From: a virus
Reading direction: 5' to 3' (one strand)
IMG/VR virus record: IMGVR_UViG_3300037348_000049
Location: 32,001-96,000 of that record
Length of the DNA stretch: 64,000 nucleotides
Shown here: positions 43,933 through 49,739 of the stretch, piece after piece
How the letters are laid out: the number at the start of each line of letters is the position of its first letter
Numbering within the stretch: position 1 is the stretch's first letter
Made by a program: the position numbers and the translations under genes
Notes under the pieces: generated by a model
The model's input: the letters and a program-made list of their open reading frames with translations, nothing else
The model's database searches: none
Told to the model about the DNA's origin: nothing

Positions 43933-44590
43933 AGGCAAGGCAATACTATATGCGCGAGTCTCTACCGCGATGCAAGTTAGTGATGGTATATCGCTAGATG
44001 TACAAGAAAGGCAGCTAATAAACGCTGCTGAGTTTCACGGCTTTGCAGAGTGGGAAGTTATTCGCGAAGAAGGCAAGTCGGGCAAGAGCGTAAAAGGACG
44101 CCCCGTTTTACAATCCGCTTTGAAACGCCTTGAGGCCAAAGAAGTAGACGCCCTTATTGTTACAAGGATAGACAGACTGGCTAGGAGTACAACTGACTTT
44201 CTTGAGATAGTGGACAAGGCCGCCAAGCAAGGGTGGCGACTAATAATGCTAGATCTAAACCTAGATACTTCTACGTACCAAGGAAGATTTGTAACAACCG
44301 TGATGAGTGCCCTCGCCGAGATGGAGCGTGGCATTATTGCTTCCCGTCAGAAAGATGTGCACAAGGATAGACGAGAGCGTGGCATTGTTTGGGGAAAAGA
44401 CATGGGCCCAATAAATAAAACTCCGCAGATCATAAAAGATAGAATTTCTGCGGAAAGAAGTGCTGGACGGTCCTATCGTGAAATAGCTAACGGATTAAAT
44501 CAGGAAAAAATAGCTACGCAGAATGGTAAAATATGGTACGCTACGACAGTAAAGAACATTTTAGATGGGATGTCACCTAGTGAAGCGTAA
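43925..44590 (+). CDS. Serine recombinase (resolvase/invertase domain plus short DNA-binding domain)
   Basis: YARVST (catalytic Ser), SL..Q, E.G.SGKS...RP, V.RIDRLARS, C-terminal SYREIA..LN...W..TTV.NIL. Confidence 0.92.
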   Translation: MSEGKAILYARVSTAMQVSDGISLDVQERQLINAAEFHGFAEWEVIREEGKSGKSVKGRPVLQSALKRLEAKEVDALIVTRIDRLARSTTDFLEIVDKAAKQGWRLIMLDLNLDTSTYQGRFVTTVMSALAEMERGIIASRQKDVHKDRRERGIVWGKDMGPINKTPQIIKDRISAERSAGRSYREIANGLNQEKIATQNGKIWYATTVKNILDGMSPSEA

Positions 44591-45308
44591 AAGAAAATCA
44601 ATAATAAAATTCACCTCAGCAGATAACTTTACAGAGCAAAGTGCAGCATTCCCTTTGCCGGCAAAGAGATCTGTCCCAGATTGGTATAGAAAGATGCCAT
44701 TACATTTTGGCGGTGAAGGCTATAAGTGGATGGGAGAAAGGGGGAATAACGGAACTTTTAAGGCCTGCATCCCCATGTTTGATGCCCTAACTTCAGGATA
44801 TGTTATACCTACCCCTATTGACTTACTTGTTGAGCAAGATTATTCGGGAACCCCAAAATTTGTTTGGAGAATGGCTGGCGATAGTGGCATGATTAGTACT
44901 CATGATCCTGGTCAAATACCAGAGGACATGGTCCCTGAGGAGTATGACAAAATGGCTTTCAAGTTCGCTAATCAATGGATGGTATCAACGCCTCCTGGAT
45001 ACTCGCTGCTGTTTACTCATCCACTAAACAGGGGTGACCTGCCATTCTATAGTTTGACTGGTATTGTTGACACTGACAAATACACCGCTCCAGTTAACTT
45101 TCCATTTTTTATCAAAAAAGGCTTTACGGGAATGATACCAGCTGGCACTCCCATGATCCAACTCATTCCTATTAAGAGAGAACCATGGGCAATGGAGCTA
45201 GATAAAAAGTTTGATGCTGATGCCGTTACAGTAGCTAATGGACCTCTTTACTCAAAGATGTGGAGAGGTTATAGAGACTTCTTCTGGGATAAGAAAGAGT
45301 ATGAGTAG
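44580..45308 (+). CDS. DUF6065-like (probable dUTPase-like beta-clip fold) protein, copy 1
   Basis: P.PA....PDWY, K.C.P..DAL.SGY, TPPGYSLLFTHP.NR.DLPF..LTGIVDTD, GTP..Q.IP.KRE.W; start moved to GTG 44580. Confidence 0.55.
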   Translation: MKRKRKSIIKFTSADNFTEQSAAFPLPAKRSVPDWYRKMPLHFGGEGYKWMGERGNNGTFKACIPMFDALTSGYVIPTPIDLLVEQDYSGTPKFVWRMAGDSGMISTHDPGQIPEDMVPEEYDKMAFKFANQWMVSTPPGYSLLFTHPLNRGDLPFYSLTGIVDTDKYTAPVNFPFFIKKGFTGMIPAGTPMIQLIPIKREPWAMELDKKFDADAVTVANGPLYSKMWRGYRDFFWDKKEYE

Positions 45309-45659
45309 ATGCCTAAAAAGAAAAAAGTAAACGCACCTATTGAAACTGCTCCAGCTCCAAATAAAGACTGGGAATACGTAACGGAGTTGCGAATAAATGG
45401 TAGGAATGTTGCTGCTGGGACTGAGCTAAAAATAAAAGGTCATCGAGGCAGGTTTAGATTTGTAAAGCTTGTGCGTAATGGAGAAGTGGAATGGATTGAT
45501 GTTTGGGGAGGTCCAAAGAAGTTTGAATCTATGAGAAGCTTTAGACTAGAGCAGGTTCAAAGAATTCATTACAAGAATCAAACCGTGGGTAATTTAGCTG
45601 AAGAATATAAAGCTAAAAAAGCGATCTTAAAAGCAGAAGAAGGAAGTAACGATGTTTAA
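45309..45659 (+). CDS. Hypothetical basic beta-rich protein
   Basis: 116 aa; abuts both neighbours. Confidence 0.7.
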   Translation: MPKKKKVNAPIETAPAPNKDWEYVTELRINGRNVAAGTELKIKGHRGRFRFVKLVRNGEVEWIDVWGGPKKFESMRSFRLEQVQRIHYKNQTVGNLAEEYKAKKAILKAEEGSNDV

Positions 45660-47956: not shown

Positions 47957-48234
47957 ACTGGTGGGTAGCATTAAAAACAATGTGGGCTGGTGGGTACTGG
48001 AACAAGGCTAACACTATTGAATTCTATGCCTTCATGATTAAAATTATCATCATCGTTCCGGGTCTTCTTTTTGGGGTGTCTTGGTGGTGGTTGTATTTGC
48101 TGTCTCTTGGCACAAGTATAGCCCTGGTATGGTCTTCTACCGTCAAGACACTTCCAACAATAATCATCTTAAATATTGCATGGATTTTTATATCACTAAC
48201 AGTAATAAGTAGAGAGGTCCTAACATGGATGTAG
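47944..48234 (+). CDS. Small multi-TM membrane protein
   Basis: Three hydrophobic segments; AGGAG SD before TTG 47944. Confidence 0.7.
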   Translation: MDKLNWWVALKTMWAGGYWNKANTIEFYAFMIKIIIIVPGLLFGVSWWWLYLLSLGTSIALVWSSTVKTLPTIIILNIAWIFISLTVISREVLTWM

Positions 48235-49739
48235 TTATTGCGGGGGGAGGATCTGCGGGGTGGTCTGTTGCTTGGGCTTTTGCTAGAGGTTCTAAGGTCT
48301 CATCTATAACTGTTGTTGAGTCTTCTAGGATAGGAATAATTGGAGTTGGCGAAGCATCTAGTGGCCTGACGACTGATCTTTTAACGGACTTTCATACTTT
48401 TTCTGACTCTAGGATTATGAATGACGAAATGCCCTTTGACTTTAAGGACTTCTACTCAACAGTGCATGCTACCCCAAAGTTTGCGCTAATTCATAAAAAT
48501 TGGAGTAAAATAAAAAATCACTCCTATGTGGCACCTACTGAGGCACCATTCACGCATACGACGGCTCCAGATCTTGGATACTTAGCTTGCGTTGGCAAGT
48601 GGGGGGGTAGAGGTGCCCACCTATCTTCTGCACTAGGAATTGCGCAGGCTCTTGACAAATGGCCGCTTGGCGATGACCCCGGCGGGATCCAATTTGACGC
48701 CAATGAGTATAGTAAATATCTAAAGGAATTCTTGACTAAAGATCCACGAGTAAAAGTAATAGACGCAGATATTGAAGATGCAGAACTAGACTCTCGGGGG
48801 TATATTAAAAACATTGTACTAAAAGATGGATCTCGTATAGAGGGTGACTTTTTTGTAGACTGTACTGGTTTTAAACGAGTTCTAGGAAAGAAAATTGACG
48901 TAGGTTGGAACTCCTATGCAGATGTCTTACCAGTCGACAGAGCCATGCCTTTTATTGAGGAATATAAATCTTTTGAAAAAGAAATCCCGGTTGGTACTGC
49001 AACCGGCATGAACGCTGGTTGGATGTGGCAAGCTAACTTAAATCATAGACGTGGTATGGGGTATGTGTACTCTAGTCAGTTTATTTCAGATGAAGATGCG
49101 GTTAAAGAGGTCGAGAAGCTCCGTGGACGCAAAGTAGATCCTGTAGCTTTTATGAAGTTTGATTCTGGTTCTGTTAATGATTTCTGGAAAAAGAACTGCC
49201 TTGTTGTTGGACTGGCTGCATCATTCATAGAGCCATTAGAAGCAACATCACTACACGCAACCATGATGCAGGCTATAACTTTTGTTAGAGAATACTTGGG
49301 TCCAGATGTTGAAAAGACAATAAATTCTGGTTCTATGTATTTCTACAATAAGCAAACTAAAGAAATGTATGAGCACTACAAAGACTTTGTTGTGTTCCAC
49401 TATCAGGGTGGTAGAACTGACACCCCATTTTGGCAGCACATAACCAATGACAAGTTGTCAACTCCTGTCGTCGATGCTTACATTGAGAAAGTTCAAGCAC
49501 GTTCACCTGGACGATACATGTTTAATGATATATGGAACGTAGATGCTCTTTGGAAATGGACCGCAACAGGCCTCGGATTTTTTACTCAAAAGCAAGCAAG
49601 AGCTGAGCTGGACTTTCTCGATCTTAAATATATAGCAAATAGGGAGTTCCACGATTTCTATGACTCAATCGAGTCCGAGCTGCTAAAAACTGATTTGAAG
49701 TTTCAATTCGCACCTAAAGGAAGAGACCTTAAAAAGTGA
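48225..49739 (+). CDS. Tryptophan-halogenase-like flavoprotein 2
   Basis: GGGSAG, IGVGEAS, ATPKFAL, QFDA, DFFVDCTGF, GWMWQANL, SFIEPLEATS. Confidence 0.9.
   Translation: MDVVIAGGGSAGWSVAWAFARGSKVSSITVVESSRIGIIGVGEASSGLTTDLLTDFHTFSDSRIMNDEMPFDFKDFYSTVHATPKFALIHKNWSKIKNHSYVAPTEAPFTHTTAPDLGYLACVGKWGGRGAHLSSALGIAQALDKWPLGDDPGGIQFDANEYSKYLKEFLTKDPRVKVIDADIEDAELDSRGYIKNIVLKDGSRIEGDFFVDCTGFKRVLGKKIDVGWNSYADVLPVDRAMPFIEEYKSFEKEIPVGTATGMNAGWMWQANLNHRRGMGYVYSSQFISDEDAVKEVEKLRGRKVDPVAFMKFDSGSVNDFWKKNCLVVGLAASFIEPLEATSLHATMMQAITFVREYLGPDVEKTINSGSMYFYNKQTKEMYEHYKDFVVFHYQGGRTDTPFWQHITNDKLSTPVVDAYIEKVQARSPGRYMFNDIWNVDALWKWTATGLGFFTQKQARAELDFLDLKYIANREFHDFYDSIESELLKTDLKFQFAPKGRDLKK

Follow-up and report, generated by a model that had tools for sequence, protein, structure and literature searches.

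A conserved phage gene block of two halogenase-family flavoproteins with dUTPase-fold and membrane-protein partners

Two described phage systems come closest to the locus studied here. In cyanophage Syn9, the neighbourhood gp41-gp54 encodes two tryptophan halogenases, a protein that has the dUTPase fold and a conserved cysteine, and ten dioxygenases in tandem (Iyer, Abhiman, de Souza, Aravind 2010, PMC2938197). The second system is VirX1 of cyanophage Syn10 (structure 6QGM), a characterised viral iodinase with a halide preference of I > Br > Cl and a broad substrate scope, for which no partner proteins are described in the review PMC8407142. We analysed a window of 64,000 nucleotides, i.e. bases 32001-96000 of the 129.6-kb IMG/VR virus record IMGVR_UViG_3300037348_000049, whose completeness is estimated at 75%. 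On the plus strand of this window (43925-49990, in window coordinates), eight co-directional genes follow one another, each overlapping or abutting the next. They encode, in this order, a serine recombinase, a protein called here D65a, a DUF7246 protein, a second D65 protein (D65b), the halogenase homologue HalA, a protein with three transmembrane helices (hereafter TM), a second halogenase homologue (HalB) and a small protein, orf84. The original prediction, drawn from the letters of this window, had described six tightly packed genes; their positions and packing are borne out, but the block is longer, the recombinase and orf84 bringing it to eight genes.

The D65 proteins connect this block with Syn9. 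A profile (A1) built from an alignment of 35 viral D65 homologues, D65a and D65b included, matches the Syn9 genome (NC_008296) at 36066-36665 with an E-value of 8.6e-15. As this match falls inside gp43, D65 corresponds to the gp43 family. The gene gp43 comes directly after the halogenase genes gp41 and gp42 and overlaps the end of gp42. Both loci therefore have two tandem halogenase paralogues and a gp43-family protein with its conserved cysteine, encoded by overlapping and apparently translationally coupled genes. The differences are nevertheless clear. The Syn9 halogenases are next to tandem dioxygenases, whereas none was found in the window record: neither PF13640, nor PF05721, nor three hidden Markov models (HMMs) built from neighbours of phage halogenases gave a match in the 129.6 kb. 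Likewise, PF13640 oxygenases were not found in five related records, among them a complete 135-kb relative (G005). The window block has two D65 paralogues against one in Syn9, and it has a conserved membrane partner that is missing from Syn9. It also includes, unlike Syn9, the DUF7246 gene, orf84 and the serine recombinase gene. Finally, it is located among nucleotide-metabolism genes, while the Syn9 genes stand behind tail-fibre genes. The block is thus a variant of the Syn9-type neighbourhood in a compact form without dioxygenases. The pairing itself is not new: a conserved-cysteine dUTPase-fold protein beside two phage halogenases has been known since 2010 (PMC2938197), and the gain is in this respect incremental. 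What is new is the phage-only membrane partner, the duplication of D65, the lack of any dioxygenase found and the bounding of the block by a recombinase.

HalA (46391-47956, plus strand; 521 aa from the ATG at 46391, in an open reading frame that is open from TTG 46334) and HalB (48225-49739, plus strand; 504 aa) both match the Trp_halogenase family PF04820, with 309.3 and 276.5 bits, respectively (cut-off 21). The two proteins are paralogues with about 30% identity. Counting HalA residues from ATG 46391, we read GGGTAG at 15, GAGEG, K80, GWMCKIP at 283 and FIEPLEA at 352 (E354/E357); in HalB, the corresponding motifs are GGGSAG at 7, GVGEA, K85, GWMWQAN at 265 and FIEPLEA at 334 (E336/E339). 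The GxGxxG and GxGE motifs for flavin adenine dinucleotide (FAD) are thus present in both. The nearest solved relatives are bacterial, BrvH (6frl) for HalA (E = 1.3e-48) and Xcc4156 (6y1w) for HalB (E = 7.7e-49); these similarities of about 1e-48 extend over nearly the full length, with all core motifs in common. The catalytic lysine (equivalent to K79 of PrnA) and the glutamate of FxEPLE fall in the same alignment columns as in BrvH and Xcc4156, which upholds the earlier reading that the FAD GxGxxG, this lysine and FIEPLEA are all kept. VirX1, rightly cited there as a characterised viral iodinase (PMC8407142), belongs to the same family, is also viral and keeps the catalytic lysine and glutamate, but, with E-values of 1.3e-34 to HalA and 4e-35 to HalB, it is more distant than the two bacterial structures. 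The halide preference and the substrate scope of VirX1 were both measured.

The block is conserved as a whole. Its full eight-gene order is repeated, with 29-71% identity, in two other viral contigs, L050 and L055 (labels of this kind designate the loci read around the matches of our searches). The serine recombinase (43925-44590, plus strand; 221 aa; PF00239 Resolvase with 121.8 bits and a partial PF07508) is the best-conserved member, with 71% identity at the same position in L050 (1922-2638) and L055 (1889-2581). The DUF7246 protein (45309-45659, plus strand; 116 aa; PF23904 with 81.3 bits, phrog_1338), encoded between the two D65 genes, is also found at the same position in both contigs, with 60% identity, and in L036 a copy lies close by on the other strand. 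Orthologues of D65b share 58% (L050), 55% (L055) and 47% (L036) identity with it, those of HalB 46% (L050) and 45% (L055). The block is closed by orf84 (49736-49990, plus strand), a small charged protein without any Pfam or PHROG match, which is likewise retained at the same position (59% identity in L050, 51% in L055). In L050 and L055, the orthologues of D65a are distinct from those of D65b, and L036 carries the order D65-Hal-Hal-TM. Because it recurs in independent contigs, this gene order is not a chance arrangement. A lack of co-occurrence in other phages, which the original prediction had named among the grounds for its refutation, is not what we see: the full order recurs in L050 and L055, D65-Hal-Hal-TM in L036 and Hal-Hal-D65 in Syn9.

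The genes flanking the block differ between the window phage and L050/L055, and the recombinase is always at the 5' edge; the eight genes may therefore move as a cassette. Our search for flanking repeats, as possible recombinase sites, returned only short imperfect matches of chance quality and the paralogy of the D65 and halogenase genes. In a sister contig (L006/L034; IMGVR_UViG_3300022839_001050), identity to the window is 99-100% for the cassette genes but falls to 93% for the upstream DUF5824 gene and to 92.6% over the first 148 residues of HalB, which marks mosaic boundaries at the two ends of the cassette. Within the block, the recombinase gene overlaps the start of D65a by 26 nt, DUF7246 overlaps D65b by 8 nt and HalB overlaps orf84 by 4 nt, D65a abutting DUF7246. 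Counted from the likely starts, the overlaps are 14 nt for D65b/HalA, 13 nt for HalA/TM and 10 nt for TM/HalB. TM thus appears to be translationally coupled to both HalA and HalB.

We then investigated how often the three kinds of genes occur together. The halogenase profile matched more than 587 viral contigs, of which the best 80 viral loci were read; for comparison, the best 80 cellular loci were taken with the same profile. Among these viral loci, TM was found in 35 (as the adjacent gene in 31), D65 in 19 and at least two halogenase genes in 10. Grouped at 50% halogenase identity, the 80 loci represent 27 lineages, and TM is then present in 8/27 and D65 in 7/27. From the other direction, a search seeded with TM gave 12 loci, and a halogenase gene adjoins TM in 10 of them. 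In the cellular loci, TM and D65 were each found only once (1/80), both times on short contigs of metagenome-assembled genomes (MAGs). The BrvH/Xcc4156-type bacterial loci differ in this from the window block, which has both partners. The TM and D65 partners are phage-specific and frequent, without being obligatory. As to the two cellular cases, TM is at 7053-7337 of a 19.6-kb contig of a Bacteroidia MAG (L141) and D65 at 3672-4448 of a 9-kb contig of an Actinomycetota MAG (L147). These contigs may be phage DNA binned with the genome, or prophage fragments. DUF7246 was absent from the 80 viral halogenase loci.

D65a (44565-45308, plus strand) and D65b (45652-46404, plus strand) are paralogues with about 35% identity, and both belong to phrog_7084 (E = 3e-50 and 3.8e-37, respectively). 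The DUF6065 family of Pfam is reached by D65a with 27.1 bits for a cut-off of 26.6 and is not matched by D65b; 21 of 35 family members match it weakly. The AlphaFold (AF2) model of D65a has a mean predicted local distance difference test score (pLDDT) of 91.9. Foldseek assigns it to dUTPases with a probability of 1.00, and VIA-align reaches Z = 9.4, its 22 best chains being without exception dUTPases or dCTP deaminases. The resemblance to these trimeric beta-clip enzymes includes a root-mean-square deviation of 3.6 over 120 residues to 3h6x, and the GIVDTD motif of D65a (residue 166) resembles dUTPase motif III. D65a is modelled, with this agreement, as a dUTPase fold, and D65b is assigned to the same fold as its paralogue. 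In the A1 alignment, Cys68, Asp73, Pro143, Ser147 and Phe181 are invariant, in addition to the GIVDTD motif; the equivalents in D65b are Cys69 and GIMDCD at residue 164. The conserved cysteine is also found in Syn9 gp43 and in all halogenase-linked D65 members.

Despite this fold, D65 proteins are distant from dUTPases. They have about 100 extra residues, an invariant cysteine that dUTPases lack and paralogues in tandem arrays of two or three. The dUTPase HMM (PF00692) matched neither D65a nor D65b at E-values up to 1, its only match being a separate gene at 61380-61667; only the motif-III-like GxxDxD was seen in the two proteins, motifs I, II and V not being recognisable. Aligning A1 with the window's own degenerate dUTPase in hhalign gave no alignment, and A1 searched against the PDB found no structural relative, only chance matches to calcicludine. 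A halogenase-adjacent D65 subfamily, encoded directly downstream of the halogenases (L037 7442-8251, L133 7442-8245, L135 7382-8239, L139 7497-8282), reduces this distance. Its members have a histidine in place of the first aspartate of GxxDxD and a glycine-rich RGFGSG-type tail that resembles dUTPase motif V, and one of them reaches the PF00692 cut-off. In sequence, the subfamily links the gp43 family to true dUTPases.

The D65 family comprises more than 5200 clusters, all annotated as hypothetical, and our literature search found no paper mentioning DUF6065. On cellular genomes, the D65 profile A4 gave 260 pattern matches, none of which is a relative. SapC was considered as a D65 relative, a lead that came from bacterial halogenase loci with SapC neighbours (TonB-receptor/SapC/JmjC/halogenase), and was rejected at the level of sequence: its HMM (PF07277) matched nothing in the record of the window phage at E-values up to 10, so that the block also differs from these bacterial neighbourhoods. 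A fusion of D65 with another domain was discarded as well. The sole longer protein (P0241, 481 aa) owes its length to a low-complexity stretch at the N-terminus, probably from a mis-called start.

TM (47944-48234, plus strand) is encoded in a reading frame that is open from TTG 47899. Its likely start is TTG 47944, which is preceded by AGGAG 8 nt upstream, is the start given in the Atlas record and yields a protein of 96 aa, matching the length of the homologues. The family (94-100 aa) comprises at least 3600 clusters among the matches listed; TM itself has no Pfam or NCBIfam match. In an alignment of 42 sequences, 23 columns are invariant, and the invariant polar residues within the predicted helices include N38, T39, E41, K48, PG, WW, the SSTVKTLPT loop and N92. 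The conservation of TM is tighter than that of the enzymes, which speaks for a specific function and not for that of a holin. Its AF2 model (pLDDT 68.6) shows an N-terminal amphipathic stretch followed by three long helices. With this model, the top Foldseek match is SemiSWEET (4x5n) at an E-value of only 3.7, with none below 1; the Atlas model has a template modelling score of 0.71 to a SWEET1 cluster, and VIA-align returned only generic three-helix bundles. The resemblance to SemiSWEET is only a hint. Docking, gating or transport are possible roles.

Our preferred explanation, to which we give about an even chance (roughly 50%), is a phage-specific halogenation cassette in which two-component halogenases, D65 proteins for substrate handling and a membrane partner act on a small aromatic or membrane-proximal target. 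Family membership, the retained catalytic residues, the fold of D65a and the conserved gene order are established directly, and they point to a real, conserved halogenation cassette that is probably functional; what we infer is that the enzymes are active, that complexes form, that the membrane serves for tethering, and which type of substrate is used. HalA and HalB would be two-component flavin-dependent halogenases. The original prediction had noted that a flavin reductase is missing from the window, and indeed PF01613 has no match in the whole 129.6-kb record, other reductase families not having been searched; the reduced flavin (FADH2) would be supplied by a flavin reductase of the host. 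Hypohalous acid formed at the flavin would pass to the conserved lysine (K80 in HalA, K85 in HalB), beside the glutamate of FIEPLEA, and an electron-rich aromatic group would then be halogenated.

D65a and D65b, as old paralogues, would probably assemble into a hetero-oligomer by which the substrate is bound, presented or processed further. This association is suggested by the separate orthologues of each paralogue and by the organisation of dUTPases, which are trimers with shared sites. TM most likely would keep the enzymes at the membrane's cytoplasmic face, or would pass substrate, product or halide across it. We incline to a target that is a small aromatic metabolite or lies close to the membrane, and less to nucleotides, because of the early/metabolic gene setting, the membrane partner and the lack of any dioxygenase found, and because the fibre gene array is 11-20 kb away on the opposite strand.

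Several observations weigh against this explanation. First, the partners are often missing, 45 of the 80 viral halogenase loci being without TM and 61 without D65. Conversely, tandem D65 arrays of two or three genes exist without a halogenase: the search seeded with D65a gave 28 viral loci, none with a halogenase outside the sister contigs of the window phage. Such arrays, with no halogenase in the flanks read, are located at 6002-9442 in L020 and 7255-9388 in L025, and also in L011, L013 and L016. Second, the WxWxIP motif is changed in both flavoproteins, W to C in HalA and IP to AN in HalB. Third, the HalA-type orthologue of L055 (4434-6026) is degenerate, with the catalytic lysine replaced by cysteine, GxGE lost and EPLE turned into ENKE, while the adjoining HalB-type gene is intact; this orthologue looks like a pseudo-enzyme and may be a partner, so HalA-type copies can decay, or may act as non-catalytic partners. 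Finally, the fold searches with TM are uninformative, and halogenase and D65 genes stand beside fibre genes in other phages, which favours a virion target.

The main rival follows from this last point. The halogenases and D65 would modify Trp, Tyr or His residues of the phage's own collagen-like or fibre proteins in trans. In Syn9, the Hal-Hal-D65 genes come directly after tail-fibre and fibre-assembly genes, and in actinophage DSL-LC01 the halogenase gene is between collagen-like genes and a glycosyltransferase gene. The D65 arrays without halogenase are flanked by glycosyltransferases (GlcNAc-type PF11397 and GT1-type), collagen-like genes and multiple tail-collar genes. Moreover, oxygenases of protein-hydroxylase type recur, beside a nuclease, around the halogenases of the 80 viral loci: prolyl-hydroxylase-type and other 2-oxoglutarate oxygenases and Asp/Asn beta-hydroxylases (2OG-FeII_Oxy_3, Asp_Arg_Hydrox). 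Neither these oxygenases nor the nuclease was found in the window record. The window phage itself has a large array of collagen-like fibre genes (9-33 kb of the window, minus strand) and an ice-binding-like protein gene (41316-42548) 1.4 kb upstream of the block. Against this, in the window phage and in G005 a distance of 11-20 kb separates the module from the collagen genes, which are on the other strand, and the module stands among ribonucleotide reductase (RNR), PhoH and thyX genes; in G005, which carries D65-Hal-TM, the collagen genes are at least 20 kb away and on the other strand. No hydroxylase was found in the window record, nor one of PF13640 type in the five related records, and a tightly coupled membrane protein is unexpected for a cytoplasmic process. 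In addition, we know of no report of a halogenated virion residue. We consider tailoring of virion proteins a serious but rather unlikely alternative.

A second alternative is that the flavoproteins are not halogenases, the WxWxIP changes having turned them into monooxygenases, or one or both copies being in decay or non-catalytic. The motif has been proposed to prevent monooxygenation (PMC8407142). The original prediction had correctly read it as broken in both proteins (WMCKIP and WMWQAN) and had taken this as a sign of non-standard chemistry. This last step does not stand up to comparison. The orthologues read WMWKIP for the HalA type (L050) and WMWNSP (L050) or WMWNTP (L055) for the HalB type, and other relatives read WxWx[IT]P. 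Since the syntenic orthologues keep WxWx[ITS]P, the changes are confined to this phage and to the sister contigs with 99% identity. Furthermore, some active halogenases are without the motif (PMC8407142). As far as the sequences tell, the WxWxIP deviations give no support for non-standard chemistry. The degenerate orthologue of L055 still speaks for decay, but in HalA and HalB the lysine, the glutamate, GxGxxG and GxGE are intact, both reading frames are full length with strong family scores, and the genes are preserved, with 99% identity, in near-identical contigs. The loss of halogenase function is thus improbable.

The weakest alternative is a modification of nucleotides or DNA, in which D65 would bind a pyrimidine nucleotide, its cysteine would activate C5 and the halogenases would supply the halogen, giving 5-halo-dU or 5-halo-dC (5-halogenated deoxyuridine or deoxycytidine) for phage DNA. 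Attack of a cysteine at C6 is known chemistry from thymidylate synthases, and the dUTPase fold, the retained GxxDxD and the invariant cysteine are in keeping with it. So are thyX (50032-50766), which starts after a gap of 41 nt downstream of the block, a dCMP deaminase gene that in L036 precedes the D65 gene by about 0.3 kb, and the RNR genes that adjoin D65 in HF1, S-RIM4 and L026. However, thyX is not next to the block in L050 or L055, D65a and D65b are not matched by PF00692 and lack recognisable motifs I, II and V, and D65 genes are mostly located among fibre (collagen, tail-collar) and glycosyltransferase genes; no halogenated phage DNA is known. Because the thyX adjacency is not conserved, this explanation, although chemically attractive, is poorly supported, and so is the nucleotide link suggested by the original prediction: we judge it very unlikely in general, and marginally less likely still in its complete form, with the halogenated pyrimidine made beside thyX and built into the DNA of the phage. 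If true, a halogenated base in phage DNA would be a kind of DNA hypermodification that is not known so far.

The preferred halogenation cassette has a practical side. Viral flavin-dependent halogenases are widespread, as the number of matched viral contigs indicates, and VirX1 is a prized biocatalyst. As a minimal, dioxygenase-free system with two phage-only partners, the cassette offers a short and defined set of genes for finding a natural substrate. The coupled and highly conserved TM hints, moreover, at halogenation chemistry at the membrane.

Finally, we looked at the wider setting of the block. Upstream are the genes for NrdI, NrdE and NrdF (34676-38159), PhoH, the ice-binding-like protein, a DUF5824 protein and a DUF7455 protein; downstream, thyX is the first gene. 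The best match of HalA among GenBank phages is in Actinomycetia phage DSL-LC01, which would fit a possible actinobacterial host, as does the D65 gene beside a halogenase in the Actinomycetota MAG. A megablast of the block against GenBank phages gave no match. In a scan of the block for promoters and terminators, the counts were those expected from shuffled sequences. In 13-21 of the 80 viral halogenase loci, an APS-kinase-like (adenosine 5'-phosphosulfate) protein of 253 aa and a two-helix membrane protein of 70 aa are encoded directly upstream of the Hal-TM pair (e.g. L090 4903-5661 and L080 5392-5601); neither gene is in the record of the window. The 70-aa protein may resemble DUF2061. The pair hints at a possible sulfation chemistry in the phages that carry it. 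The small DUF7455 protein of the window (43439-43684), whose gene is the second one upstream of the recombinase gene, is a member of an 89-aa family that occurs in 18 of these 80 loci.

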